Under the pieces are notes generated by a model. The model saw nothing but the letters and a program-made list of their open reading frames with translations. It was not told where the DNA came from and searched no databases. From a virus (Duplodnaviria > Caudoviricetes), in IMG/VR virus record IMGVR_UViG_3300046782_000740, positions 1-62,775 of that record: a stretch of 62,775 bases of DNA. One strand, written 5' to 3'. Positions within the stretch are counted from its first letter, which is position 1; each line of letters opens with the position of its first letter. Shown here piece after piece: positions 4,008 to 44,802 of the stretch. The position numbers and the translations under genes were made by a program.

Positions 4008-7000
4008 TCAGCCAGCAATCCCCGATGTGCCTTGAGAATACTGCTGTTTGACCTGGGGCGCCTGGGCCTGCGACCACTGACGGTTCTGCTGATCCCAGAA
4101 GTTCTGCGGCGTCTGGCCGAAGATGTCAGCGGTCATCTCCGCGCCCGCACGACCGACTGCTCCACCGGCTGCCGACTGCATGCGCGTGACGTTGGGGTCT
4201 AGCCCCTGCTGCAGGAAGTTGCCTGCCAGGTCGTTCGACTGCTGCGCCCACACGCCAGGCCCGAGCGCTTCCTGATCGGTACGGTAGGCAGCCTTCTGGA
4301 ACGGATCCCAACTCTGCCACTGCTGCGCCGTGATCGGCTGGCCTGTGCCGCCCGCTGGCGTGGTCGAGCCCTGCTGTGGAAGCTGCCCACCAGGCTGCGC
4401 AGCACCGGTGCTGCCCGCAGCGACGCTGCCCTGCGCGCCTCCACCAGGGTTGTAGCCAGCCGAGCCGAAGCCTGTGTAGTTGGGCGTGTTCTCGACGCCG
4501 TACTTGGTCGGGTCGTACGGCTGCAGGATCGAGTTGATCAGGTTCGACAGGTTCTGACCGCCGACGGCCTGACCCTGATAGCCGGGACCAGGGGTCATGC
4601 CCTGCAGCTTCTGCAGCCACGGGTTCTGCAGCGCGCTGCCCAGGATGTCCATCTTGTTCTTCTGCGTGGTCTGCCAGTCGGTGAACGCCTGCGAGCCCTC
4701 CTGCAGGTAGACCTTGTTGCCCTCGGACATCTCGGTCATCTTGATCTGGGTCGCGTCGCGCATCTGCTCGATGTCTTTGGTGGACTGGATCTGCTCGCGC
4801 TGAATCTTCTCGGACTCCTGATTGTGGCGCTCGTTCTCGGCGTTGATCTCCTGCTGGCGCTTGTCCTGATCCTGATGGATAGCCCAGTCCTGATCAATCT
4901 TCTTGAGCGTCTCGTTGTGCCGGTTGTCCTCGTTGGTCTTGTTCTGTTCTTCGATGGCCTTGTCGTTGCGGATCTTCTCGTCGATCTGCCTGTTCAGGGC
5001 GTCGATCTGGGCCTGCTGGCTGGGGGTCATGGCGACCGCACCAGCACCGGCGCCCATACCCCACTCGCCGCCCGCACCCATATCCGAGGCGTCTCGGGAG
5101 ATGGCCCTGTCGTCCCAGAGGTTCTGGTTGCCCGTGCCCATCTGCTGCTGATCTGTCGGCTGCTGCTGTTGCTGTGGCTGCTGACCCAGCGGCTGTTGCT
5201 GCGGCGGCGGCTGTTGACCTACCGGTTGCTGCTGCTGCCGCTTCACCGACTGCACGCTTGCGGTGATCGGCGACTGCTGGTTGCCGTTGCCCCAGAAGCT
5301 CTGCTTGTCCTTCTGCTCGTACAGATCCCAGCGCGAGTCAGCGTTGTCCTGCCCGCCGCCCATCGGGGGCTGCTGGGGAGGTGGTGCGCCAGGCTGCGGG
5401 GGCATCGGCGGGGAGCCGCCAGACGGAGAACTGGATCCGCCGGGCGGGCCCATCATCTGAGTCCCTGGCACAGGTGGGAGCGAGGCCATGGACCCAAGCG
5501 CGCCCGTCGGGTCGACAGGCTGACCTTGCGGGTCGCGCACCGCCCAGTGTAAGTGAGAGCCGGTGGTGTTGCCCGTCGAACCGACCTGGGTCGCCAGGTT
5601 CTGACCTTTGGCTACCTGCGCGCCGCGATACAACTCGGTGCTCTTGAGGTGCCCCAGCTTGTGCAGCGTGCCGTCGTTGCCGCGAATCATGACCACGAGG
5701 CCGAGCCCCTCTGGGTCGTCCTCGATGCTCTCGACCATGCCGTCGACGGGGGCGATGGTGTCGGTGCCCTCGGGCGCCTGCAGATCGACCCCACTGTGCA
5801 CGGGCTCGCCCTGGTTCATCTCCTGGCCGAAGCGATGCCCGATGCCCGCCACGTCCCCTGGCGGTACCGGTGGCGTCCAGCCAGGGGAGCCAGGGCCAGG
5901 TGTACCTCCTGGCCCTGGCATGGCACCAGCGTTCGGCGGAGAGCCAGGCGCAGGAGCCCCTGGAGAGGGTACCCCACCCGCCGTGGGTGGAGGGGCCCCA
6001 CCAGCGGGCGGAGCCCCGCCCATCTGACCGCGCAGCATTTCGATGTCAGGCGGGACGCCTGGCGGCAAGCCGCCTGGCGCACCGCCCCCAGCAGCAGGCG
6101 GCGGGGGGGAATCCGCGCCTGCACCAAAGAAGCTCAGGCCAGGCATCCCAGGCAGCTTGGGTTGAGGCACGGGCGGCGCGTGCCCCCCGCCCTGCGGCAG
6201 CGGCGTCACGGGCGGCGCGTGGCCCTGGCCCTGGCCCAGGCTCTGCTGCTTCTTCTGGAACTCGTCCCACCAACTGGGGTTTCCCGTAGGTGGCGTGACC
6301 TCGGGCGTGTGCCCGAGCGGCGGACCCTGCTCCACAGGGGTTGAGTTATTGCGCTCAGGTTCCCTGTGGACATCATCCGGCTCCGCGCGGATCCACTCTC
6401 TGGGATCCGTCGGCGGCAAGTCCCACGGGAGTTGCGGGTACTTCTGCGATTCTCCCTTGGGCGGATCAAAGGGAGTCTCAGGCTCGGTCCCGCCGTACCC
6501 CTGAGTGACGTCTCGCCAGTCACCTATATCCGGCTTCTGCGTAAAGGGGTCTGGCGGGAGCGGGGCTTCAGGCGGCGGCTTCTCCTGCTCACTCCACGCC
6601 GCTTCGTCCTCTGCACGGCTTGCCTCTTCGTCCTCATCCGCACCAGACGTGGGATTCCACGCCTCGCCTCGCATCGGCTCGTCTTTCGGCTGGTCGTGCT
6701 GGTCCTGCTGGTGCGGGTTTTCGAGCCCGCGCATCGCCTCGTCGTAGCGTCGCTGGACCTCGTCCTTGTGGGCCTGCTCGTCGCCAGGCTGCGCTGGGGG
6801 CTCGCTGCTGCCCCACGACTTCGGGTCGAGCGGATGGAAGTCGATACCGGCGCCCATCTTCGGGGTCCAGCCCTCGTGGCCCGCGCCGATGTCGATGGCC
6901 GTGCCGAGCCCGAGCGGGTCGCCGAGCTTCTCGAAGTCGGAGCCGAGCATGTTGGGCGAGTTGCTCTGCTCGGCGTCGGGCTGCTGCGAGGGCTGCAGAT

Positions 7001-9347
7001 CGACGCGCTTCTTGGACTTGGGATCCCAGATGCCGAAGCTCTCGGAGTTGCCGGAGTCAGCACCGGCACCCTCGTCGATCTGGGCCTGATTCTCGATGTC
7101 GAGCGGGTTGTCCTCGTTGAGCCCCAGCACGTTCCTGGCCTTGGCGGCAGCGGCAATCTGCTCGGGAGTGGCGACCGTGCCCAGCCGACGCGGGTCGTTG
7201 ATGTCGACGGTGCCCGTCAGCCCTGCCTGCGTTGCCTGTTCGTTACCCGCTGGGGTGCGGCCCTGCTCCTGATCGGCGCGCTGCCAGTCGGAAGCGCCAG
7301 GCGTCCAACCTGTCTTGTTCTCTTCAGCCGGCTTAGCTGTCTCAGTTGGGGCAGCCGCCGCCGTCGTCGCCGTCGGTGCGGGGGTGGGTGCCCCCGTCGC
7401 TGCTGCGGATGGAGCAGGGGTGCTGGCAGCAGGGGTGGACTTGTCGGTACCGCCCGAGCGTATCTCCTTGATCTGGTCCATCAGATCGTTGTAGACAGCC
7501 ATGCCGCGCTCGTCGGTGCCCGTGTCGTAGTGCTTGACGCCGCGCGATCCGCCGTAGTCGATATCCGTCTGCATACCCGGCGGCATGTAGATGTCCGTCG
7601 AGGTCATGATCGGCTTCGGGTTGGCGATGTCGTAGGCCGTCTTCTCGATCCGCGAGATGGCCTCGGCGCGCGTGACCTTGCCGGTCTTGATATCCTCTTC
7701 GAGCTTCTGCCTGTCGAGCGGCGCCTTCAGCAGATCGTCCCTGGCCTTGGCCGCGTCGGCCTGCAGCTTCTCCAGCGTGGCCTGTTGGGTCGGCAGGTAG
7801 AACTGGCTTTCGTCGATGGTCTGCAGCGTCTTCTTCGGGTCGCGCGGGTCGTACTGCACGGTCTTGCCGTTGATCGTGTCGACCTTCATGTCGTGCGGCG
7901 GCTCGTACGCCACGCTGGGAGATTCGCCAGGAGCGGTCGGCAGCTTGACCACGGCGTTGCCGACGACCTTGTAGCCGTTCTCGACGTCTGCCGGACCCAG
8001 CGGAGAGGTATCGCCAGTGTTCTTGTTGATCAGCCACATCTGACCGCTGGCGTCTTTCTGGGTGTCGTAGATGCTGGCCGTGGATAGCGAGGTCGCCGAC
8101 TTCAGGTTCTGAATGTCGACCTTGCCCTGCTGCAGCGAGTTGGCCTGTTGCTTGGCAGCGGCCTGCGCCGTGGCGGTCGCCTCGGGATCTGGATCCCACT
8201 TTGTACCGTCGGCGCTGAGCTTGAAGACCTGTGTATACGTGGTGCCCGGGAAGATGGTCTTGACGTTGCCCGCCTGACCAGGCGTGACGGTCTTGGGGGT
8301 CGCGGGCTTCTGGCTGACGCCCAGGTCGAACTTGTTGTTGGGATCCTTCTTGTCGACGAGGAAGCGGTGCATCAACCCGTCGTCGCCCCGAAGCTCGGTG
8401 GGGAAGTGCGTATCGGGCCCGACCCCCGCGCCCGTCATCTGCTTGCGTACATCAGGCGGGTACGGCACGAAGTCGGTCGTACCTTTGATTGGGTCAGGAT
8501 TACCAGGCAGGAAGTAACCCATCGGCACGGGTGGTTTGGACTTGTCGTTCGGATCGTCGGGAACTTGCCAGGCAGACTGGTACCTGCCGTCGGCGCCCTT
8601 CCTGAACTCGACGTGATAGCCGGGCAACGCGGCGATGCCGTTGGCTGCAGCAATGTCAGATTCACCCGGCTCTGGGAAATACTTCGAGGGGGCAGCGGGC
8701 GCTCCAGCCGTAGCCGCAGCAGGAGGCGCTGGCATCTGCGTGGCGGGCTGCTGTTGCACGGGTTGGGTACCGTTCGACTGATCTGGCACCTCGTCGGTGG
8801 TGCCCGAGAAGTCAGGGCGCCTGAGCGGATCTGGTGCTTCCTGGCCAGCGCCGAAGTCCGCGCCGTTGCCGACCATCGAGCCGCGCTGCGAGAAGTCGCG
8901 CGTCTCGGGACCGGTGGCCTGCAACTGCGGGCCTGGGCCCGTGCCGTACGGGTGTGCCGAGATGGGCGGCTGGCCTGGCGAGAACGAGTTGTCGCGTGCG
9001 GACTGCGCTGGCGCGTAGCGTCCATTGCCGGTGGTGCCTGGCGGTGAGCCGGGCGAGGCAATGCCTGGGCCCATCGTCATACCCCAGTCGACGCCTGCCC
9101 CCATACCCATGCCCGCGTCGTGCGGCATCAGGCTGTAGTTCAGCTTGTCGGAGGGCGCCAACACGCCAGGGCCGTGCACCTCGTTGGTGTCGGGCGTGTA
9201 GTTGATCAGGTGCGCAGGCGCCTGGGTTCCCGGAGGGGATGCCAGCACATGTGGCTGGGGGTGTGTGAGGCCGTCCATGCCGTGCTCGGCCTGCAGCCGC
9301 TCGGCGGGTTTGTGGGACGACAGCGACGGTGGTTGCCAGAACGCCAT
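4008..9347 (-). CDS. Giant (1779 aa) low-complexity virion/ejection protein with an M23 peptidase domain
   Basis: HSGVDLQAPEGT...APVDGMV...LGHL...VGSTGNTTGSHLHW contains the M23 HxxxD and HxH motifs. Pro/Gln/Gly-rich linkers and a coiled coil. Lies downstream of the portal. Confidence 0.85.
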   Translation of the reverse strand: MAFWQPPSLSSHKPAERLQAEHGMDGLTHPQPHVLASPPGTQAPAHLINYTPDTNEVHGPGVLAPSDKLNYSLMPHDAGMGMGAGVDWGMTMGPGIASPGSPPGTTGNGRYAPAQSARDNSFSPGQPPISAHPYGTGPGPQLQATGPETRDFSQRGSMVGNGADFGAGQEAPDPLRRPDFSGTTDEVPDQSNGTQPVQQQPATQMPAPPAAATAGAPAAPSKYFPEPGESDIAAANGIAALPGYHVEFRKGADGRYQSAWQVPDDPNDKSKPPVPMGYFLPGNPDPIKGTTDFVPYPPDVRKQMTGAGVGPDTHFPTELRGDDGLMHRFLVDKKDPNNKFDLGVSQKPATPKTVTPGQAGNVKTIFPGTTYTQVFKLSADGTKWDPDPEATATAQAAAKQQANSLQQGKVDIQNLKSATSLSTASIYDTQKDASGQMWLINKNTGDTSPLGPADVENGYKVVGNAVVKLPTAPGESPSVAYEPPHDMKVDTINGKTVQYDPRDPKKTLQTIDESQFYLPTQQATLEKLQADAAKARDDLLKAPLDRQKLEEDIKTGKVTRAEAISRIEKTAYDIANPKPIMTSTDIYMPPGMQTDIDYGGSRGVKHYDTGTDERGMAVYNDLMDQIKEIRSGGTDKSTPAASTPAPSAAATGAPTPAPTATTAAAAPTETAKPAEENKTGWTPGASDWQRADQEQGRTPAGNEQATQAGLTGTVDINDPRRLGTVATPEQIAAAAKARNVLGLNEDNPLDIENQAQIDEGAGADSGNSESFGIWDPKSKKRVDLQPSQQPDAEQSNSPNMLGSDFEKLGDPLGLGTAIDIGAGHEGWTPKMGAGIDFHPLDPKSWGSSEPPAQPGDEQAHKDEVQRRYDEAMRGLENPHQQDQHDQPKDEPMRGEAWNPTSGADEDEEASRAEDEAAWSEQEKPPPEAPLPPDPFTQKPDIGDWRDVTQGYGGTEPETPFDPPKGESQKYPQLPWDLPPTDPREWIRAEPDDVHREPERNNSTPVEQGPPLGHTPEVTPPTGNPSWWDEFQKKQQSLGQGQGHAPPVTPLPQGGGHAPPVPQPKLPGMPGLSFFGAGADSPPPPAAGGGAPGGLPPGVPPDIEMLRGQMGGAPPAGGAPPPTAGGVPSPGAPAPGSPPNAGAMPGPGGTPGPGSPGWTPPVPPGDVAGIGHRFGQEMNQGEPVHSGVDLQAPEGTDTIAPVDGMVESIEDDPEGLGLVVMIRGNDGTLHKLGHLKSTELYRGAQVAKGQNLATQVGSTGNTTGSHLHWAVRDPQGQPVDPTGALGSMASLPPVPGTQMMGPPGGSSSPSGGSPPMPPQPGAPPPQQPPMGGGQDNADSRWDLYEQKDKQSFWGNGNQQSPITASVQSVKRQQQQPVGQQPPPQQQPLGQQPQQQQQPTDQQQMGTGNQNLWDDRAISRDASDMGAGGEWGMGAGAGAVAMTPSQQAQIDALNRQIDEKIRNDKAIEEQNKTNEDNRHNETLKKIDQDWAIHQDQDKRQQEINAENERHNQESEKIQREQIQSTKDIEQMRDATQIKMTEMSEGNKVYLQEGSQAFTDWQTTQKNKMDILGSALQNPWLQKLQGMTPGPGYQGQAVGGQNLSNLINSILQPYDPTKYGVENTPNYTGFGSAGYNPGGGAQGSVAAGSTGAAQPGGQLPQQGSTTPAGGTGQPITAQQWQSWDPFQKAAYRTDQEALGPGVWAQQSNDLAGNFLQQGLDPNVTRMQSAAGGAVGRAGAEMTADIFGQTPQNFWDQQNRQWSQAQAPQVKQQYSQGTSGIAG

Positions 9348-9637
9348 CAGTCCTGCTCCATCCGCTTGTGCATGCGCTTGATGGGCCTACCCGTGCGTCC
9401 GTCGATCAATTCAACCACGCCTAAACCTTCGGCGCCGACGCCGTCGATGCGTTCGATGAACGGCTCAGGGGCCTGTCCAGGCCCCACGAGCCGCTCATCC
9501 ATGAACGCCCGCGTCCCGGGTTGAGGCTGCTGGAGTAGCCCGTGGCCTGGGGGTGCGGGGTGTAGCTCCGCTTCGGGGGTAGCGGAGTAGACGTCGTGCA
9601 GCTTGCGCATCGCGGCGCGGAAGTCACTGTTTGGCAT
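9347..9637 (-). CDS. Hypothetical protein (96 aa, MPNSDFRAAM...)
   Basis: Tightly packed in the late operon; ATG chosen inside the track ORF 9347..9706. Confidence 0.6.
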   Translation of the reverse strand: MPNSDFRAAMRKLHDVYSATPEAELHPAPPGHGLLQQPQPGTRAFMDERLVGPGQAPEPFIERIDGVGAEGLGVVELIDGRTGRPIKRMHKRMEQD

Positions 9638-9857
9638 GGTGCGCCTCCAGATACGCGCGCACCACGTCGGCGGCGTGCTCGTCCAGCGGCCTCTCGCCAG
9701 CGACAACCTGGGACAGGTAGTGGCCCTGACGCTCGTTAGTCTTCTTCGGGCTGATCCACTTCCGCCCCAACGGCGGCTGGTCCCGGTCGTCGTGGGCCAC
9801 GATCTCCAGACCCCTCGGCACCTCGGTCATGAGTTTGCGGAGATTGGCTCCGGGCAT
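9624..9857 (-). CDS. Hypothetical protein (77 aa)
   Basis: AGGAG RBS before the ATG; fills the gap between neighbours; overlaps the upstream gene. Confidence 0.6.
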   Translation of the reverse strand: MPGANLRKLMTEVPRGLEIVAHDDRDQPPLGRKWISPKKTNERQGHYLSQVVAGERPLDEHAADVVRAYLEAHHAKQ

Positions 9858-20502: not shown

Positions 20503-20532
20503 TTGACAACCATTTCCGGCCCGTGGTAGGAT
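20503..20532 (+). promoter_or_regulatory. Sigma70/SigA-type promoter
   Basis: TTGACA-N18-TAGGAT, preceded by the palindrome CTGGAATTAGTTCCAG. Confidence 0.75.
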
Positions 20533-20567: not shown

Positions 20568-21446
20568 ATGGCACTACGCAGAAACAAAAGCACGGGTGGC
20601 TGGGAGCGTCAGCAGCCCGATGGCACATGGTTAGAGGTGGCGGGTCCGAGCGCCGCGCCGCCCGTCGGGGTCGCCGCTCCCGTAGCGGACTCGCTCGACG
20701 CGGCGCTGGACGAGGCATTCGACGCCGCGCTGGACGAGGCATTCGAGGCGTCCCAAAAACCCACCGAGCCCGTATCGGCGAATGGCTCCCAGGATTCGGC
20801 AGAGCCTGCGCCTGCTGCTTCGGTCAGTGAGCCGTCCCCCACGCTTGAGGCTGCCGTCGTCGAGGGCCAATTCACCGAGGTGCCCAGCGACGGAGCACAG
20901 GTTGTTGAGGGTGCTGCGGACGCGGGGCTCGACTTCGACATCCCTGGGCTGACGTCCTCAGACGGATCCAAAGGCACCAGGGGCGCCGCCGGTGTGCGCG
21001 ACCGCCTGATGGCCCGTCGGGGCACGGGAGGCCGCTCCACAGTTAGTGGTGCTCGCTCGGGTACGGGCGAGGGCACGGTGGTGGTAGCCGAGCGCGCCGC
21101 TCGGGCAAGCGGCCCCGCCGTCCGCGACGGCACCGAGGCCAGAGGACGCAGGGGGCGTTCTGGCGCACCCAGTCGGCCATCCACAGTTGGGTCGGGGACC
21201 GCTTCTGGTGGAGCGGCCAAGGCTGCCAGGTACACCGCGAAACCTGCGCCGGGTATCCTGAGTTCGTCTCCGAAGTGGGTACAGGATCTGTTCGAGGCGC
21301 ACTTCCGTTCGGACATGACGCTTCGGCTTCGACGGGAAAACAACCGGATGAAGATCAGTCGGCAGGACTATGCAATCGGGTGGCTGACGCTGCTGGCCAA
21401 GGTGAAGGAGGATCCGAGCATCCTGCGACTGAAGGACAAGGGGTAG
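20568..21446 (+). CDS. Hypothetical protein (292 aa): disordered acidic then basic region plus a conserved C-terminal helical domain
   Basis: AAGGAG RBS downstream of the promoter; SRQDYAIGWLTLL motif. Confidence 0.75.
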   Translation: MALRRNKSTGGWERQQPDGTWLEVAGPSAAPPVGVAAPVADSLDAALDEAFDAALDEAFEASQKPTEPVSANGSQDSAEPAPAASVSEPSPTLEAAVVEGQFTEVPSDGAQVVEGAADAGLDFDIPGLTSSDGSKGTRGAAGVRDRLMARRGTGGRSTVSGARSGTGEGTVVVAERAARASGPAVRDGTEARGRRGRSGAPSRPSTVGSGTASGGAAKAARYTAKPAPGILSSSPKWVQDLFEAHFRSDMTLRLRRENNRMKISRQDYAIGWLTLLAKVKEDPSILRLKDKG

Positions 21447-21573
21447 GGAGAGGGGGCTGACTTTACCTAGCCGGTAAAAGGGAAAAATTTTTTGGGGGCT
21501 CGCACCGTCCCCGAATAGCGCCCCAAGTGGTGCGTAGCACCACGGGGGGGCGCCTCCCCCCCTGCTTGCAGGG

Positions 21574-22598
21574 GGGGAGCTTCGCTGCGCGCGCGGCGGC
21601 GGCGGCGCTGGGCGGGGGTGCCCCCCGCTTAGCGCGTGCCTGCCGCTAGCTGCAGCGTACCCGCGCCGCGTGGCGCAGCGCATGGGGTGCAGGGCGTGCG
21701 CAGCACGCCCTCCAACACCCATGCCCGCTGCCCATGCGGCAGCGCCTGGCCGCGCGCTGGCGTGGCGGAAGCGGGGCATACGCCCGCTCACCGCCGCGCA
21801 GTGCGCGCTGCGCAAGAGCGCACCTCCAGGCCAGGGCTACGGCGCAGCCGTCGCCCACTGGCCAGGAGGCGAGCACGGTCGCTGCCCATCGGGCAGCGCA
21901 GGCCAGGCCGTGCGCCTTCGGCGCACGACCCGAGCCTGGCGCGGCGGACGCCGCTCCTGCCCCAGCGACAGCCAGCGGCACGCTGCGCTGCAGCGCTGCC
22001 GTCGGTCGGCGCGCCGCCGTGCGCGGCGTCTGCGTCGAGCGTGCTCGGCTCGCGCGCCCCGCGCCCATCGCCTCGTTGCTGGCAAGCGGCGCTTGCCTGC
22101 GTGCGGCAACGCCCCGAAGACTGGCCTGGGCGGCGAGCCGCCCGGGCCAGGCGAACAGCAGGGGAGATAGCCGAGCGCTGCTCGGCCCATCTTCTGCGCT
22201 CACGGGCACAGCGGCGGAGCGACTTCGTCGTTCCGCTTGGGCACGTGCTCGTGCGGCCCACATGCCGCGACCTCTGGCGTCGGACGTCTGCCCTGGCCGC
22301 GCGCTATCGTCGCGTCCGCGCGGGCTCGCGGCCCCTCGCCAGATCCACACGCGCGTCCCTCGCACAGTGGGACGCGGGCTTGCCCAGCGTCGCACCTCCC
22401 GCCTTTCGTTGGTTGCGCGGGTTCGGCGTAGCCGACCACGCGCGGTCGCGGCCGTCGCTGCCTCCGAGGTCTCAGGTTGTCGCCGGGGCGAACCTCTTGG
22501 GATGGCACCAGCAGACCACACGCTGGCATTTCAAATGTAACCCAGCGGTAAAGGGAGCAAGCTCCCCCGTCACCTGCCAAGGGGCGACACACAGTGAG
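21574..22598. repeat. Left (non-coding) arm of a giant imperfect inverted repeat, complementary to 22627-23829
   Basis: Its reverse complement aligns colinearly by hand with the promoter, RBS and four genes to the right, with many short deletions. Confidence 0.92.
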
Positions 22599-22648
22599 TC
22601 GGCAAGCCGACCGCCCGCAAGGGGCTCTCACTGTGACTCGCCTTATCC

Positions 22649-22677
22649 TTGACAGGAGCCGGCCACTGTGTTACTAT
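22649..22677 (+). promoter_or_regulatory. Sigma70/SigA-type promoter inside the fold-back stem
   Basis: TTGACA-N17-TACTAT, then AAGGAGG RBS and ATG at 22729. Confidence 0.85.
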
Positions 22678-22728
22678 ATTTGATGCCAGCGGTGGAGCCG
22701 CTGAGCCACACCAAGGAGGTTGCCCCTC

Positions 22729-23133
22729 ATGGCAACAACCCTCGATACCCTCGTCGGGAGCAGCGACTCCCCCCGCGACCGCTCGGTCGTGGTCGACTAC
22801 AGCGCCGAACTCCGCAAGCACACCAACGAGAAGAGCGGCGAGGTCAGCTACGCGCTGGTCATCTCCCCCGTCTTCTCCACTGGTGCGAAGGGCCGCAACG
22901 CGCTGTGGATCTGGCTCGATGGGCCCGCTTCGCTCCGCGCCTTCCGCGACTCGATGCAGCGCACGGCCAAGGGCATCGACGCTCTCGACGCCAAGATGGT
23001 CGCGGCCAAGGAGTGGGCCGCCCGACCAGTCGCGCCCAAAGCGGAAGCGGGCAAGCCCGCCTCCTCCGCCGCTGCGCCCGTTGAGGCTCCGAAGACGGTC
23101 CTCGACAACGCGCTCTCCGATCTCCCCTTCTGA
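22729..23133 (+). CDS. Putative ssDNA-binding protein or SSB C-terminal mimic (134 aa)
   Basis: Strong RBS; beta-rich N-domain plus helix (PC4/PUR-like by eye), Ala/Pro linker, C-terminal SDLPF like the bacterial SSB tip. Confidence 0.65.
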   Translation: MATTLDTLVGSSDSPRDRSVVVDYSAELRKHTNEKSGEVSYALVISPVFSTGAKGRNALWIWLDGPASLRAFRDSMQRTAKGIDALDAKMVAAKEWAARPVAPKAEAGKPASSAAAPVEAPKTVLDNALSDLPF

Positions 23134-23189
23134 TGTTCGCCTGGCTGGGGCGCGCGCTTGCGCCCCAGGCCGTTCTTCGGAGCATTGCC

Positions 23190-23546
23190 ATGCACACGCA
23201 GGAAATCGCCACTATTCGCCAGCAACTCGCGGACATCCGCGCGTGGCTCGCTGAGACCGAGCACAAGCTCGACCGCATGACGCTCGCGCCCAAGGCGGCG
23301 CCGCTGTCGACCGACGAGATCATCGCTGCAGCGTCCAGCGCGACCGCTGTCTACAAGTCGCTGGAGCAGGAACTCGGCGTCGACCGCCGCACCATCCTGG
23401 CTCGGGTCGAGCGCCTGGTCAAGGCGCACAACCTGGCCGAGCGCTTCCCCGAGTGGGGCACCGACCTCAAGCTCGCCAAGTACCTGGCCGAGCGGGTCGA
23501 CGGCGACCGCCGCCGCATCACCGTGGCTCTGGAGGCGCTCTCATGA
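23190..23546 (+). CDS. Coiled-coil plus HTH-like protein (118 aa)
   Basis: GGAG RBS; YKSLEQELGVDRRTILARVERL resembles an HTH. Confidence 0.7.
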   Translation: MHTQEIATIRQQLADIRAWLAETEHKLDRMTLAPKAAPLSTDEIIAAASSATAVYKSLEQELGVDRRTILARVERLVKAHNLAERFPEWGTDLKLAKYLAERVDGDRRRITVALEALS

Positions 23547-23674
23547 GCGCCTCGCGCCACCCCGCGCACAGGGGTGAGCGGCGCGCGCTTCGCGCCATCG
23601 ACCAGCGCAAGCGCGACCAGGCCGCTGCCCGCAAGGCAGCGCGCGCCCTGGTCAGTTGGAGGGCGGCTCGATGA
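23543..23674 (+). CDS. Small Arg/Ala-rich protein (43 aa)
   Basis: GGAGG RBS; ATGA coupling on both sides. Confidence 0.65.
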   Translation: MSASRHPAHRGERRALRAIDQRKRDQAAARKAARALVSWRAAR

Positions 23675-23841
23675 GCCGCCTTCCCCTCCTGCGCTGCGGC
23701 TACTGCGGGCGCATGATCTCGCAACAGCGCGGCAAGCCCGCGCCCCACAAGTGGGTGCAGGCTCCGCGACCAGGCGCTCGCGCCTCTGGCCCGTGGTGCG
23801 TCGGCGGCGCGCGGCAGCTACCGCTCCCCGGGCTCGGCTAA
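23671..23841 (+). CDS. Small Zn-finger-like protein (56 aa)
   Basis: GGAGG RBS; ATGA coupling; CGYC...H...C. Confidence 0.65.
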   Translation: MSRLPLLRCGYCGRMISQQRGKPAPHKWVQAPRPGARASGPWCVGGARQLPLPGLG

Positions 23842-24109
23842 CGCCGGGCCTTCGCTGCCCTACCGGGCCGCTGTCGCGGCCCTCGCCTCGCACTAGCCCG
23901 CCCCCCTGCGGGGCGGGCACCGGCTGGCTGCGCCAGCCGGAAGCACCTGGCACGGCGCGCGCTCCGCGCGCTGGGCCAGGCGCGCCGCTCCCCCTGCGGG
24001 GGGCGGGCTAGCTTGTCCGAGGCCGACGGCTGGGCCCTGCGGCTTGCGGAGTCTTGCTGCCGGCTAAAACAAGAGGCCCGAGCGCGCACAGGGGCACCAC
24101 CCCCTGGGT

Positions 24110-24410
24110 ACATTAGCAAACGCCCTGATTGTTACGTCAACCGGTGTTCTGTCTACTAGACATAACTATCTGGGGTTTTGCTAATAACACGCCGGATGTT
24201 GCATATACAGGCCCGGATAGCCTATATGCTATTCCGGCGTAAATAACCGGTAACAATCCCGGTCTTTATGGTGTGGATAAGAACAGGCCCGTTTTCAGGG
24301 TACCGGGCCTAACATCCACATTTGCCACGCCGTAAGCTCCCCGGTAACGGCTCTCGGAGCCGAAAAAGGGCCATTCCTTATCCACACCATAAGAACCCAG
24401 GCTGTGATCT
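24110..24410. other. AT-richer non-coding region with nested inverted repeats and two DnaA boxes; candidate replication or priming origin
   Basis: TGTGGATAA at 24272-24280 and TTATCCACA at 24378-24386 lie within a 16-bp perfect inverted repeat. Confidence 0.6.
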
Positions 24411-24475
24411 TGAGCCTTAGCCAATCGTGGATTAGATCCTTGCACAACCACAGACAACCTGCTAGGCTTCTGCCC

Positions 24476-25636
24476 ATGCCCGACGCATCCCCAGACTTGT
24501 TGGCTCTCTCCAAGCGAGTCGTCGACTCACCCACTGTGTCCCTGGAGACCGGTGGTCGCTATCTGCCTGTTCTCGATCTCCGTCCTGATAGCGATACAGC
24601 GGGGCTCATCACCGTAGCCGATGGTCGAGTGCTCTACATGGGCTATCTGTGGCCCACACCTCCACCTCCGCCCTACCCGACCTACATTCCCACCCTACCC
24701 AAGGTCGACACTGAGGTGCATGGGCTACTCAACCACTTCACCTTCTACGCCGAGGATCCATGGCGAGCACTCTCGGTCTACGCTATGCGGCTCAACACAG
24801 TGGAGCGCTTCGCCCGGGATGAGAACGACGACATGCTGCACGTTCGCATCGGTGTCGAGCAGTCGCTGTGGCGCAGGCTCTACCACCGCACGCTCAGGCA
24901 GAGCGTGATGAGTCACGTTGAGCACGATCTCGAAAGCAGCGACCACATGTGGTGGCGAGGGCCGTACCCCGACACGTACACCGGTCGTCCCAGAGTCAAG
25001 CTGCCCGGATACAACTATCTGCCCGTCTATCGCCTGCTGTGGCCTCTGGAGCGTCCGCATCTGCTCATTCCTGACGGGCGCCCGCGCAAGATCAGCTACC
25101 TGTGCAACGACAAGCACTCTGACGACCCTGCTCAGGACTTCCGCATGTGCGTCAACCCGCACCACTTCGAGGAGTCTGTGCCAAAAGCCTGGCGTCTCGA
25201 TCAGCACACCCGGCGAGGTGTGGCGAACGAGCTATTGCAGTTCAGGTTCCCGCTCTCGCAGATCAGCATCCGCAACTTCGCCGAAGATGGGAAGCCGCTG
25301 CTCGGCACGTGCCCTAACGGGCACGACGTCGGCGAAGAGGTGATCAGGAACTACAACGAAGGCGTCGGCTCGAACCGGTTCATCTGCTATCCCTGCAAGG
25401 TACAGGCGTACAAGATCCAGCGAGCTATGGGCCGCGAGACCGCCCGCACCCGCAATCGCTGGGAGCCCACGCTGGCGGAGCTTGATGAGATGCATGTCGG
25501 GCTGCGTCGCCAACTACCGGACCGATACACAGGGCCTGACAGTCTGGATGCAGACATAGAAGAACTCAAGCGCTTGATGGTGCTCGATAAGGCAGCCGAA
25601 AGCGGGGCTTCTAGTCCCGGCTATATAGACGAGTAG
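24476..25636 (+). CDS. Protein with a degenerate His-Me finger/HNH-like Zn loop and a CPNGH..CxxC zinc module (386 aa)
   Basis: G.P.VK...VYRLLW...ISYLC...CVNPHHF and TCPNGH...CYPC. Start uncertain, possibly leaderless. Confidence 0.65.
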   Translation: MPDASPDLLALSKRVVDSPTVSLETGGRYLPVLDLRPDSDTAGLITVADGRVLYMGYLWPTPPPPPYPTYIPTLPKVDTEVHGLLNHFTFYAEDPWRALSVYAMRLNTVERFARDENDDMLHVRIGVEQSLWRRLYHRTLRQSVMSHVEHDLESSDHMWWRGPYPDTYTGRPRVKLPGYNYLPVYRLLWPLERPHLLIPDGRPRKISYLCNDKHSDDPAQDFRMCVNPHHFEESVPKAWRLDQHTRRGVANELLQFRFPLSQISIRNFAEDGKPLLGTCPNGHDVGEEVIRNYNEGVGSNRFICYPCKVQAYKIQRAMGRETARTRNRWEPTLAELDEMHVGLRRQLPDRYTGPDSLDADIEELKRLMVLDKAAESGASSPGYIDE

Positions 25637-41239: not shown

Positions 41240-42247
41240 GTGGACGTAAGCTTGTCTACGACGGCGTTCAACGATGCTGCCCGCTGCTTGAAACGCTATG
41301 AGTACCGATGGGTAGAGAACCTTGTCCCGAAGCCACGGGACGTTCGCCCCGCCATGCGGCGCGGGGTATGGCTGCACCGCTGCTTGCAGTTGCACGATCA
41401 GGGAGAGATGTGGACGGGAGAGCTAGCGCTGATGGGGCGCTGGGCTGTCGACCACGGGGTGCCTGAGAGCGACGTGCTGCAGACCATGCGCGAGACGTAC
41501 GAACTCGTGCAGGATTACATCGCGTACTGGGCTGGCCACGAGGAGAGCCCGGGACCGTGGCGTACCGACGCCACCGAGGTCAAGGTTGACTGGGAGCCCC
41601 AGCCTGGGGTCAGGCTGACCAGCACCATCGACTGCCTCAAGCGCGACGCCAGCGGCAAGCTGTGGATCTGGGAGCGCAAAAGCACCGCTGACATCCCCGA
41701 CTCGAACTGGCGGGGTGTCGATCCGCAGACCATGCTGCAGTACATCGAGGCCCGTGCCCGTGGCTTGCAGATCACGGGTATCGTCTTCGACTACATCAGC
41801 ACCCGCCCCGGTACGGCGCCCCGTGTCACCCAGAAAGGCGCGCTGTACAAGGGCGACGAGGACAAGCAGGTGCGCGGCAGGGCCTGGGCCCAGACCGAGC
41901 AGGAGCTTCGTGCCAAGGGTGCGGCGGAGAGCTACATCGACGAGATGCGCTCGCGCATCGTCAGCGACGGCTCGTGGTTCCAGCGCTACTACACCTTCCG
42001 TCCCGACGACAACGCCATGCTCACCCTGCGGGACGTCAGCGAGACGCTGCGCCACGTGGCCAGGGCAAGGCAGGCCAACTACTACCCTCGCTCGATCAAC
42101 CTGCTGGACTGCCGCCTGTTCTGCCCGTACGGCAAGCTGTGCATGCGGGAGTATGCGTTGGGCCGCAAGAGCGAGGCGTACCGAGAGGAGTACATGACAC
42201 CCGGCACAGACGACCTGTACTACATGGGCAGGACGGACGTCGAATGA
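41240..42247 (+). CDS. PD-(D/E)XK RecB/Cas4-like exonuclease
   Basis: RC..RY.YR, RG..LH, ID...ERKS, Q...Y, C.LFCPY..LC. Confidence 0.85.
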   Translation: MDVSLSTTAFNDAARCLKRYEYRWVENLVPKPRDVRPAMRRGVWLHRCLQLHDQGEMWTGELALMGRWAVDHGVPESDVLQTMRETYELVQDYIAYWAGHEESPGPWRTDATEVKVDWEPQPGVRLTSTIDCLKRDASGKLWIWERKSTADIPDSNWRGVDPQTMLQYIEARARGLQITGIVFDYISTRPGTAPRVTQKGALYKGDEDKQVRGRAWAQTEQELRAKGAAESYIDEMRSRIVSDGSWFQRYYTFRPDDNAMLTLRDVSETLRHVARARQANYYPRSINLLDCRLFCPYGKLCMREYALGRKSEAYREEYMTPGTDDLYYMGRTDVE

Positions 42248-43092
42248 CGCTCACCGACCTGTTCGTCCCAGCCGAGAAGATCACCGCCCTGACCCGTGTC
42301 AGGATGGGCATCTACGGCCCCAACGGGGCGGGCAAGACCACCTTCGCCAGCACCATCCCCGCCACCGAGCGAGTGCTGTACGTGAGCGTCGACGACGAGA
42401 ACATCCGTCCCGTCGCCAGGCTCAAGCACTTCCGGGTGGTGAAGGTGCGCCGCTGGAACGATCTGCTGATCGTCTACCAGGCGCTGGCTCACCCCCAGAA
42501 CAAGATCACCGCCGTGGTGTGGGACACATGGTCTCGCATTCAGGATCTCGCCGTGGGCAAGGTCTGCAACTACGAGCCCAGCGACCCAGCCAAGCTGAGC
42601 CAGTACATCAACGCCATCCCGAAGAACCCCAGCGACTGGCGGGGCTGGGGTCAGGTCGGGGCGCTCTGCTCTGAGTGGCAGCGCAACTTCAACCTGCTCC
42701 CCATCCACATGCTGTACCTGCTGCAGGAACAGGACCGGGTGAGGGATATCGAGGAGGACGTGAAGACGGGGCCACGCCTGACGCCAGAAGCGCTCAAGGG
42801 AATCAGGGATTCGCTCGAACTGCTGGGACGTCTGTACGTGGATCTGCAAGGGCCCGACCCTGCCGGTGCGAACGGCACCGCTGGCGAGCCGCTGATGCCG
42901 AGCATCGACTTGCTGGCTCCCGTCGACAACCACAACCAGCGCATCGAGGCCAACGTCAAGGAGGTACGTCGGCTGTTCATCGGTCAGCACGACCGGTACA
43001 TCGCCAAGGGTCCGACACATCTGCTGGGCAGGGTGATCACCGACCCCAACTGGGACAAGATCGTCCCGCCGCTCATGGCACAGGTGGCCTGA
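42244..43092 (+). CDS. AAA_24 / Sak4-like recombination ATPase (282 aa)
   Basis: IYGPNGAGKTT, VVWDT, WG, P.L, AK; lies between the exonuclease and the SSB. Confidence 0.85.
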   Translation: MTLTDLFVPAEKITALTRVRMGIYGPNGAGKTTFASTIPATERVLYVSVDDENIRPVARLKHFRVVKVRRWNDLLIVYQALAHPQNKITAVVWDTWSRIQDLAVGKVCNYEPSDPAKLSQYINAIPKNPSDWRGWGQVGALCSEWQRNFNLLPIHMLYLLQEQDRVRDIEEDVKTGPRLTPEALKGIRDSLELLGRLYVDLQGPDPAGANGTAGEPLMPSIDLLAPVDNHNQRIEANVKEVRRLFIGQHDRYIAKGPTHLLGRVITDPNWDKIVPPLMAQVA

Positions 43093-43268
43093 TGGCCGAC
43101 GCTGCGCCGGTGGTGGTGAACATGAACGCTCAGTGGACCAGTGGCTCGTCCACCATGAGCGTCACCATTTCGTTCGGAGCTACCGACCTGGCGGATGCGC
43201 TGGCGCTGATTCACTCAGCGACCGACGCCGCACCGCTGTTCAAGGCTTCCCTTGAGGAGGAGCAATAA
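43092..43268 (+). CDS. Hypothetical protein (58 aa)
   Basis: TGATG coupling; fills the gap. Confidence 0.55.
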   Translation: MADAAPVVVNMNAQWTSGSSTMSVTISFGATDLADALALIHSATDAAPLFKASLEEEQ

Positions 43269-43270
43269 CC

Positions 43271-43897
43271 ATGGCCTGGACGCCAATCGAGATTGATGGT
43301 TCCGTCGGACGTACCGACGGTGCTCGGGCTCGTGTGCCCGAGGGCTATTACCTGATCGAGTGCGAGGGTGCCGAGCCCACCGCAGAGGACTTCGAGAAGA
43401 CCGCCGGGATCTTCGTCAAGATCCGCATCGTGCAGGGCCCAGACGCCACGCCTGGCCTGGGTGTTGGCGGTCGGCTGCGCGACTACAACACGATGGGCAA
43501 GAAGGATGCCTTCTTCGCTCTCGGCTCGACGCTCAAGGCGTTCGGGCTGGGCGCCATCGCCAAGCAGTTGGAGACGCGGGCCAAGGCGGGGCAGCCGCTG
43601 CGGCTGGCCACGTACAGGGACTTCGCGGCCTTCACCGAGAACATCGCTCAGCGGCTGACCGGTCGCCGTGCGGTAGCCCTCATCGCCGACCAGCCTGGCA
43701 ACAACGGTCGCCCGTTCAGCGGGGTCGAGTCGTTGTTCGAGGAGGCCGACTGGGCTACGTATCGCACGGCACAGATGGTCGGGGCGCCGACCGCACCGCA
43801 GACCATGGCAGCCGTGGCAGCGGCTGGGTCGAACGGAGCGTCGTCGGCGCCGACTGGAGCGGCGGACCTGTTCGCCGATCTGGACGCGGCGCTCTAG
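43271..43897 (+). CDS. Phage SSB-like protein (DUF669-type)
   Basis: VPEGYYLIE motif; follows the Sak4-like gene; acidic tail DLFADLDAAL. Confidence 0.7.
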   Translation: MAWTPIEIDGSVGRTDGARARVPEGYYLIECEGAEPTAEDFEKTAGIFVKIRIVQGPDATPGLGVGGRLRDYNTMGKKDAFFALGSTLKAFGLGAIAKQLETRAKAGQPLRLATYRDFAAFTENIAQRLTGRRAVALIADQPGNNGRPFSGVESLFEEADWATYRTAQMVGAPTAPQTMAAVAAAGSNGASSAPTGAADLFADLDAAL

Positions 43898-44802
43898 TGT
43901 CCACACCCGAAGCAGGGCTGCGCGAGCGGGTTCAGCACCAGATTCGCCTGGACTATCCGCCTCGCCGCTCGGGGGTGCTCATCTTCGGGCGCCCCGCTTC
44001 GGGCTCGACTGGTGCAGGCCACCCCGATCTGTTCGGGGTGGTGCTGGGCCGCTACATCGGGCTCGAACTGAAGATGCCCGGCGGTAAACCAACCGACGTG
44101 CAGGTTGCGAGGATTCGTGATCTGCGCCAGTGCGGGGCTTGCGCATGGGTAGTGCGCTCTCCCCTCGAAGCCGTCAAGGCTATCTACCAGACCAAACAAG
44201 GAGCACAGGTAATGCCTGAAGATCCCATTGATTTCGACGACTGGCTGAAGGGCCTGGAGTTGGGCGGCACGTCCAACGAGATACAGGTGATTGAGTCTGC
44301 AGCGCCCATCGAGGACGCCGCGCTAGCATCCGGGCTGGAGGTCACCACCGAGGGCTCGCCCGAGATGGACTTCGATCCGCTGCCCGAGACGAGCGGCCCT
44401 GCCAGCCCCACGCTGGAGGCCGAGCTACTCAACAATCAGCGCACCGAGGCTTCTCAGATTATCGAGGCGGCAGCCGACGAGATCGAAGAGGCTGCGGCCA
44501 TCATCGCTGGCTCGGACGATCTCCGCACAGTTGGGGACCGGGTCACGCTGGTCTTCAACGCCGTGAGCGTGGTCAACCAGCGGCAGAGTGCACTGTACAG
44601 CCTGCTCGCCAACATGGCCAGCGAGCTTCTGATTCTGCGGGCTCAGATGAACGCGCTGCTGGAGGAGGTCGAGGTCAAGCAGGCCGTGCAGCCGATCACC
44701 ATGCCCGAGCCGCTGCCGCTCGACGACATCCTGCCGCCGAGCAACGGCACCGCACCGGCCCCTGCCGAGGTCATTCGACGGAGGCGTCGCAAGGCCACCT
44801 AA
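43897..44802 (+). CDS. VRR-NUC nuclease domain fused in frame to an acidic coiled-coil region (internal start at 44212)
   Basis: GHPDL...GLELK.PGGKPT..Q...I..LR..GA..WVVRS; AAGGAG before in-frame ATG 44212. Confidence 0.8.
   Translation: MSTPEAGLRERVQHQIRLDYPPRRSGVLIFGRPASGSTGAGHPDLFGVVLGRYIGLELKMPGGKPTDVQVARIRDLRQCGACAWVVRSPLEAVKAIYQTKQGAQVMPEDPIDFDDWLKGLELGGTSNEIQVIESAAPIEDAALASGLEVTTEGSPEMDFDPLPETSGPASPTLEAELLNNQRTEASQIIEAAADEIEEAAAIIAGSDDLRTVGDRVTLVFNAVSVVNQRQSALYSLLANMASELLILRAQMNALLEEVEVKQAVQPITMPEPLPLDDILPPSNGTAPAPAEVIRRRRRKAT

Follow-up and report, generated by a model that had tools for sequence, protein, structure and literature searches.

Promoters and Origins in Folded Single-Stranded DNA

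Conjugative plasmids have well-established single-strand promoters, which time the expression of anti-defence and SSB genes, and promoters of this kind are also established for the polymerase of phage N4 itself. In N4, which is a tailed phage, the early promoters work in the form of DNA hairpins, and SSB is involved. The promoter hairpins are small, having a stem of 5-7 bp and a 3-nt loop, and they are read by the virion RNA polymerase. In ssoA-type rolling-circle origins and in the minus-strand origin of filamentous phages, folded single-stranded DNA displays promoter-like boxes, and the host polymerase primes the synthesis of the complementary strand. Folded single strands are also found as the terminal hairpins of parvoviruses (the AAV ITR and the 'rabbit ears' of MVM), in which two small palindromes are nested in a larger one to form a three-way junction.

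The original paper on Frpo, by Masai and Arai in 1997, reportedly names both transcription and primer RNA synthesis in its title. Frpo is described as single-stranded DNA that folds into a duplex-like promoter, often is found just upstream of ssb, and is stimulated by SSB (PMC11541004). In the element described below, a tailed phage has a host-type promoter enclosed in a fold-back, an arrangement for which searches of the open-access literature listed no paper on a tailed phage.

The Phage Genome and the Locus

The window, i.e., the whole stretch of DNA that was analysed, is the complete single-contig genome of a tailed phage (62,775 bp, the whole record; 65% GC). It encodes a large terminase, tail fibre proteins, virion lysins, a major head protein, two helicases, and a primase, as well as a PolA-type polymerase, an exonuclease with a Sak4-like annealing protein, and a junction-resolvase-like endonuclease. 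The PolA-type polymerase shares no more than 31% identity with its counterpart in any deposited phage. The window sequence recurs in contigs from many soil and rhizosphere runs, and there is no RNA dataset among the runs listed as carrying it. DNA searches with positions 21000-25000 gave no matches in the plasmid collection or in the phage collection, and an index of other genomes contained no stretch resembling the element.

Up to about 20.1 kb the genes are directed leftward, those between 20.5 and 45.9 kb point rightward, and beyond this the direction is leftward once more. The hairpin with the T-shaped tip is located at the start of the rightward block, which is the late/early divergence of the genome. 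The promoter scan places a promoter, P1, at 20503-20532 on the plus strand. The gene downstream of P1 (20559-21446, plus strand) ends 128 nt before the left arm of the fold-back, and no terminator is predicted between the gene end at 21446 and this arm. The genome has only two consensus DnaA boxes. They are found 1.6 kb from the tip, in the region at 24.3 kb, inside another hairpin.

The T-Shaped Tip

The tip covers positions 22590-22635. DNA folding shows a 9-bp stem formed by CACAGTGAG (22590-22598) and CTCACTGTG (22627-22635), and this stem closes hairpin 1 (22599-22610; 4 bp, loop CAAG), a CC spacer, hairpin 2 (22613-22625; 4 bp, 5-nt loop), and a T spacer. Both mini-hairpins have GC-rich stems. 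The T- or Y-shaped apex, with one stem and two mini-hairpins, had been pointed out in an earlier sequence-only reading, and it is reproduced by folding; the DNA minimum-energy fold is exactly this three-way junction on the plus and the minus strand alike. When 231 nt around the tip are folded, the plus strand reaches -62.0 kcal/mol (shuffles -37.3 +/- 3.1; z -7.95). The minus strand, for which the fold had been proposed as a check, gives the three-way tip at -72.2 kcal/mol (shuffles -39.3 +/- 3.6; z -9.25). None of 200 shuffles matched the real fold on either strand. The tip is part of an imperfect core hairpin of about 180 nt (22516-22695) that surrounds the promoter and is more stable on the minus strand.

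The tip is not an assembly artefact, since Logan contigs from three other runs show 0 differences to the window (22529-23111, 22567-22747, and 22191-22659). The four runs that were compared with the window hold only fragmentary contigs identical to it, and they thus provide no population variants for an analysis of covariation.

The apex had also been likened to parvoviral terminal hairpins. When it comes to shape this is correct, as the phage tip displays the same T/Y junction of nested palindromes. The terminal position is not shared; the phage element is internal, at 22.6 kb of 62.8 kb, and the contigs of the three other runs read through it. The 'rabbit ears' and 'clover leaves' of Streptomyces are a similar case. 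The 3'-overhangs of Streptomyces telomeres contain packed palindromes with GNA loops in which G and A form sheared pairs, and they serve as a priming platform (PMC5449611). These structures are ends of linear replicons and are read by Tap and Tpg, while the phage element is internal and has GNA loops in some of its hairpins only. The likeness to the parvoviral and the Streptomyces 'rabbit ears' is one of shape only.

The Promoter and Its Mirror Boxes

The promoter inside the fold-back, P2 (22649-22677, plus strand), consists of TTGACA at 22649-22654, a 17-nt spacer, TG at 22669-22670, and TACTAT at 22672-22677. It scores 10/12, and from the spacing transcription is expected to start near 22684. 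Three promoter sites of this kind are present in the 5-kb region, where 0.3 would be expected. The genome has seven in total, all of them rightward and with TTGACA, and the six others are not associated with a fold-back.

The left arm offers TTGGCA (the reverse complement of 22575-22580) and TACATT (the reverse complement of 22534-22539) on the minus strand, opposite the real -35 and -10 boxes. These mirror boxes (22534-22580) had been noticed in the sequence-only reading together with an extra hairpin that widens their spacing, and both observations are confirmed by the sequence. In duplex DNA the gap between the mirror boxes (22540-22574) is 35 nt, and it shrinks to 17 nt once an 18-nt insert at 22549-22566 loops out. 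The insert is made up of TAAA and the 14-nt palindrome GGGAGCAAGCTCCC, and it forms its own 5-bp side hairpin in the fold. The -35 helix contains one pair that the minus strand forms as G.T and the plus strand as C.A. Just upstream of this helix, TTAT in the right arm (22643-22646, plus strand) is unpaired and forms a bulge. The last three bases of the -10 hexamer (22675-22677, plus strand) are also unpaired, and the fold thus has a bulge of 3 nt on its template side.

It had further been suggested from this geometry that P2 may be a promoter specific for single-stranded DNA. The geometry recurs in a relative, and the covariation and the minus-strand bias described below fit a structure that acts in one single strand. 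However, P2 is a good promoter in duplex DNA, and in the two related loci that share the tip either the -35 box is weak or the -10 box is absent. Because P2 scores so well as a duplex promoter, and because the six similar promoters are without a fold-back, the fold is not needed for ordinary expression.

Related Loci and Covariation

Three loci (L001, L002, and L003) were fetched for comparison, and the available lineages with the element are the window, L001, and L003. L001 is a metagenome contig of 2.3 kb, and its gene 1 shares 58% identity with that of the window. Its tip has a 9-bp stem, two mini-hairpins of unrelated sequence, TC instead of the CC spacer, and the same T spacer, and its folds have z values of -9.85 and -10.58. 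The -10 box TACTAT and the TG are kept, and so is the mirror box TACATT, while the -35 box is TTGCAG (3/6) and the promoter scan of L001 found 0 promoters. The bulge upstream of the -35 helix reads TTATT. The spacing geometry is analogous to that of the window, in that an insert that folds on itself widens the gap between TTGCAG and TACATT, the mirror boxes, to 27 nt. This insert is 10 nt long and found in the same place as the 18 nt of the window, to which its sequence is unrelated. On the minus strand it reads GCGAAGC and fits GCGNAGC, a motif described as a stable DNA mini-hairpin (PMC13037366). The window and L001 have in common TACTAT in the gene-side arm and TACATT in the mirror arm, so the arms are conserved where they are unpaired.

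L003 is a 63.9-kb viral contig with a gene 1 that is 39% identical to that of the window. A 200-nt hairpin with the same tip (z -9.34) is found directly upstream of this gene, and hairpin 2 and both spacers (CC and T) are identical to those of the window. L003 has neither the long arms nor the insert, and its bulge reads TGAT. It also has no TANNNT -10 box on the gene side, where TTTTCC is found, and the mirror strand has only TAGACC. L002, a 41-kb viral contig, has a gene 1 that is 40% identical according to the tblastn match and 45% in a separate alignment. Its operon is syntenic, yet there is no hairpin (z -0.44), the inverted-repeat score is 32-61 compared to 50 for shuffles, and no promoter is found at the site. 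The conservation of the apex in relatives, which the sequence-only reading had called for, thus extends to L001 and L003, where it is accompanied by compensatory changes, but not to the syntenic L002.

The tip pairs of the window, L001, and L003 were counted by coordinates; MAFFT and RNAalifold misalign the variable tip. The stem and the outer 4 bp of each mini-hairpin make up 17 pairs, and all 51 cells (51/51) are Watson-Crick pairs. At 12 of the 17 pairs there are compensatory double changes.

Some further searches for relatives were negative. Gene 1 and gene 2, each used as a single query, found none in the viral contigs. The genome contigs gave none either, and two DNA patterns had no matches in the viral contigs. 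A 16-mer from hairpin 2 matches 47 viral contigs, but the 9-bp stem is complete (9/9) only in L003. The other contigs have at most 7/9, and they were rejected as relatives and regarded as chance matches.

The window and the distant L003 share hairpin 2 and the flanking CC and T without a difference, which fits a tip recognized by a protein, as had also been suggested earlier. The element might then belong to duplex DNA, as a cruciform-prone or protein-bound palindrome of an origin or regulatory region near the DnaA boxes, with the T-tip or the conserved hairpin 2 sequence as the putative binding site of a phage or host protein. The closeness of the two DnaA boxes in their own hairpin, the position at the late/early divergence, and the junction-resolvase-like endonuclease encoded by the phage are all in line with this. 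A duplex binding site would nevertheless not be expected to keep its pairing while its sequence changes, and a cruciform extrudes both strands and so leaves the consistent bias toward the minus strand unexplained. The bulges found about every 8 nt along the long arms would probably also make extrusion costly. Such a duplex element is therefore considered unlikely.

A Fold-Back of More Than One Kilobase

In the window and L001 the T-tip caps a fold-back of more than 1 kb. The left, or mirror, arm of the window (21574-22598) is non-coding and 1025 nt long. The right arm (22627-23829, plus strand) is 1203 nt long and contains the promoter, the 5' UTR, and four early genes (22729-23133, 23133-23546, 23543-23674, and 23671-23841, all on the plus strand). 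The reverse complement of 21574-22598 is colinear with 22627-23829 and gives a local score of 601, while the controls gave at most 52 (20 shuffles), 56 (direct orientation), 43 (reversed sequence), and 39 (28 other genome segments). In the arm alignment 867 of 978 columns pair, and no long identical tracts appear in the list of alignment blocks. When the 2.3-kb region is folded as a single strand it reaches -958.6 kcal/mol for the minus strand vs. -877.0 kcal/mol for the plus strand, compared to -585 to -606 for five shuffles. The pairs spanning the tip in these folds number 747 and 659, respectively. The long fold-back of L001, which ends at the contig end, has a score of 247 vs. at most 40 for the controls, and as a whole it folds at -520.2 kcal/mol on the minus and -490.1 kcal/mol on the plus strand.

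The two fold-backs were also compared with each other. Each left arm matches the right arm of its own genome (scores of 461 for the window and 247 for L001 in this comparison), but neither that of the other genome (2 and 41) nor the other left arm (17), the null being at most 8. Over the length of the shorter arm, the coding arms still agree at 77%. Among the coding-arm columns substituted between the window and L001, 65 of 139 are paired in both genomes, while the corresponding number for unchanged columns is 340 of 611. The long arms thus co-evolve, and the non-coding arm tracks its own coding arm. The substituted columns are paired at a rate near that of the unchanged ones. An old, decaying duplication cannot produce this pattern. 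Either arm pairing is selected, or the arms are repeatedly copied anew, and the lack of long identical tracts argues against recent copying.

If the arms were copied repeatedly, the element could be without a function of its own, i.e., an inverted duplication of the promoter and the operon that is maintained by conversion and slowly being deleted. The non-coding arm is about 15% shorter than the coding arm and has 111 small gaps compared to 21, as a deletion bias would give, and L002 manages without the element. The long identical tracts expected after recent conversion are however missing, and the similarity between the arms is alike in two lineages whose left arms are mutually unrecognisable. 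The small hairpins of the tip covary as well, and these could not be maintained by conversion between the arms. Nor does conversion explain the strand bias, and a relic of this kind is thus very improbable.

A Bias Toward the Minus Strand

In each of the three lineages it is the minus strand that forms the more stable core hairpin, with DNA and RNA parameters alike. The energies for the minus and the plus strand are -62.1 and -52.5 kcal/mol in the window, -66.4 and -62.4 kcal/mol in L001, and -77.9 and -60.8 kcal/mol in L003. Among the transition mismatches of the long arms, more become G.T on the minus strand than on the plus strand, with 29 vs. 9 in the window and 29 vs. 10 in L001. Two other scoring schemes gave 39/11 and 34/10 for the window and 37/23 and 39/24 for L001. 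The coding strand is C-rich across the whole genome of the window phage, and this may account for some of the asymmetry among mismatches in the coding arm. The genes of the downstream early operon (22729-23841) are on the plus strand, and their template strand is thus the minus strand. Taken together, the compensatory changes and the bias toward the minus strand in three of three lineages fit a structure that acts in one single strand.

Loops of the types C-GAA-G and C-GTA-G are found on the minus strand in three small core hairpins of L001 and L003, including hairpin 1 of both. GNA loops were also tried as a strand marker for the long arms, but this was abandoned, as the window has four on the plus and six on the minus strand, and L001 four and two.

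A single strand could also be RNA. The fold might control the early operon either in plus-strand RNA that reads through from P1 or upstream genes or in an antisense RNA from the minus strand. The control could consist in a sequestered ribosome-binding site, in a mirror arm that pairs with the mRNA as antisense, or in altered RNA stability. As no terminator is predicted after 21446, transcripts from P1 could include both arms, while those from P2 do not contain the left arm. The fold extends to the ribosome-binding site in the window and L003. The L003 hairpin has no internal promoter and would sit in read-through RNA, and the 8 G.T pairs among the 86 pairs of its minus-strand fold would suit RNA as well as DNA. 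With RNA parameters, segments around the tip still fold at z -4.4 and -4.8. However, the promoters found are all rightward and would produce plus-strand RNA, yet it is the plus strand that folds worse in all three lineages, also with RNA parameters, and on this strand the wobble positions turn into C.A mismatches. No minus-strand promoter scoring at least 9/12 is found within 1.4 kb to the right of the tip, and Rfam gave 0 matches at the gathering score for the entire window on both strands. An RNA-level element is on these grounds judged improbable.

A Possible Single-Strand Promoter or Priming Site

The best explanation is, tentatively, that the structure forms in the minus strand when this is single-stranded, and the element may be a single-strand promoter or priming site like Frpo/ssi. 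This is proposed because the fold is kept by compensation, is biased toward one strand, and is wrapped around a host-type promoter. That the minus strand is the template strand is counted as independent support. On the other hand, we know of no single-stranded entry or stage for this tailed dsDNA phage, and both the tip of L003 without a -10 box and the absence of the element from L002 count against a Frpo/ssi-like role.

The Frpo/ssi elements of the plasmids F and ColIb-P9 are long imperfect stem-loops in which one strand by itself provides the host polymerase with -35 and -10 boxes in duplex form. The window sequence folds in this manner, L001 does so in part (the -10 box and TG are kept, but only 3/6 of the -35 box), and L003 does not, as it has no -10 box. 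As in Frpo/ssi, the genes that follow have the folded strand as their template, and the known elements are often found just upstream of an ssb-type gene. There are also clear differences. In blastn nothing among 72,556 plasmid records matched positions 21000-25000. The window is a tailed dsDNA phage without an oriT/relaxase context or a conjugative leading region. The phage tip is a three-way junction, the fold of two lineages spans a four-gene operon, and P2 is in addition a full duplex promoter.

The likeness to ssoA-type and other single-strand origins dependent on RNA polymerase is one of description. These origins have an obligatory single-stranded stage and a Rep nickase, neither of which is evident in the window phage. 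A PHROG scan of 40 ORFs, many of which are without a family, named no Rep (HUH) initiator, and no Rep/NS1-type protein is found among the ORFs scanned. The difference from N4 is that the boxes in the window are of the host sigma-70 type. The giant virion ORFs contain lysin/peptidase domains or have no match, and a virion RNA polymerase was not detected in them, though a very divergent one could be missed.

A Frpo/ssi-like element could work as follows. The minus strand would be exposed on entry, after resection of 5' ends, or as the lagging-strand template, in the last case by a fork moving left from the DnaA-box region. The GC-rich mini-hairpins and the 9-bp stem would close first and set the register in which the arms zip together. 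The zipping would rebuild a duplex -35 box with one G.T pair, and the 17-nt spacer would be restored once the insert of 18 nt is set aside in a hairpin of its own. Opposite TACATT, the 3-nt bulge on the template side may leave the -10 region pre-distorted. The host sigma-A RNA polymerase would then start near 22684 on the minus-strand template, and the product could be the mRNA of the four-gene early operon, a primer for the synthesis of the complementary strand, or both. In the window and L001 the mirror arm might act as a stand-in for the non-template strand across the whole operon. In duplex DNA, P2 would work normally, and the insert would prevent the mirror boxes from forming a leftward promoter.

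In its widest form, which is rather doubtful, this amounts to a self-templating early operon in a family of tailed soil phages, where the kilobase-long mirror arm and the T-shaped nucleation tip would make the minus strand a transcribable pseudo-duplex. The first genes could then be expressed, or the strand be primed, while the DNA is still single-stranded. If true, Frpo-like logic would be seen for the first time in a tailed phage, and also for the first time over the length of an operon. More broadly, a host-type promoter in such a conserved and strand-biased fold would mean that part of a dsDNA phage genome is single-stranded for a functionally important time, at entry, after resection, or at the fork. 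Alternatively, phages may exert control by means of operon-length nucleic-acid structures. There is also the evolutionary question of how a 1-kb non-coding arm stays paired to a coding arm while at least 65 substitutions are compensated.

The Proteins of the Early Operon

The protein encoded by gene 1 ends in ...LSDLPF, which may resemble the C-terminal tip of SSB. No Pfam or PHROG family was found for the products of genes 1-4, apart from one sub-threshold Pfam row for gene 2. The structure model of the gene 1 protein has a pLDDT of 72. Compared with the PDB it gave a COMM domain (Z 5.2), Pur-alpha (Z 4.2), and PC4 homologues (Z 3.5-3.6) as the best rows. Foldseek gave E-values of at least 0.078 and the Atlas rows were all below 0.8. 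All these values are below the noise level given for the tools, and no fold is assigned to the protein. Both of the first two genes have relatives among metagenomic proteins, with five found for gene 1 (P0002-P0006) and six for gene 2 (P0008-P0013).

The core hairpin and its relatives

The helix formed by the -35 box of the right arm and the mirror -35 box of the left arm carries a compensated indel when the window (22573-22582 paired with 22647-22656) is compared with L001, a 2.3-kb metagenome contig that has the same tip and a long fold-back (1489-1497 paired with 1565-1573). Relative to L001 the window has one extra base in each arm, an A on the right and a C on the left, and this added A and C make up the G.T/C.A position. 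Since the extra base is present on both arms, the register of the helix is kept. In the syntenic 41-kb viral contig L002, the corresponding intergenic space is without the T-tipped hairpin, and it is occupied by four iteron-like 11-nt tandem repeats (9560-9614) and a hairpin with an 11-bp stem (9666-9707).

Among the 200-nt DNA folds of the genome, those at 21500-22100 and 23500-23900 are the most stable, with energies of -71 to -82 kcal/mol against a genome mean of -40.7 (sd 8.6). They represent local side hairpins within the long arms of the fold-back and at the arm base, such as those at 21691-21711 (9-bp stem) and at 21909-21927 (8-bp stem). The space between the upstream gene's stop codon and the left arm (21447-21573) contains an A5T6 run with G runs on either side, followed by overlapping G7/C7 hairpins. 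This element may act as a terminator, or else as a signal for packaging or for an end.

The early operon and the repeats to its right

The product of the first gene of the operon (22729-23133) ends in LSDLPF; among six metagenomic proteins the tail is DLPF in four and DLPA in two. Its modeled structure has three predicted strands and a long helix, and gave no significant structural match.

The whole genome contains only two consensus DnaA boxes (TTATCCACA), at 24272 on the minus strand and at 24378 on the plus strand. Both are situated in the arms of an inverted repeat at 24261-24397 (36-nt arms, 83% complementary), 0.5 kb to the right of the fold-back, and this repeat is probably either an origin or a site of DnaA-hairpin priming. 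The stretch from the operon to the DnaA hairpin contains two more inverted repeats, one at 23893-24011 with 21-nt arms (86% complementarity) and one at 24112-24185 with 27-nt arms (81%).

Promoter-like sites, recombination module and record ends

Seven promoter-like sites score 10/12 (20503, 22649, 25651, 26866, 28661, 35784, and 41147), all with a perfect TTGACA and all on the plus strand. As none of these seven is found on the late-gene strand, late transcription must use another signal. The recombination module at 41240-44802 encodes an exonuclease, a Sak4-like single-strand annealing protein and a resolvase-like endonuclease. Through this module the phage itself supplies single-stranded DNA at a later stage of infection.

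One minus-strand open frame runs past both contig ends (3-4007 and 58619-62773; 1335 and 1384 amino acids), and the record is thus circular or permuted. The first part of this frame has endolysin-like and tail-lysin domains, and the neighboring gene (4008-9347) encodes an M23-like peptidase domain.
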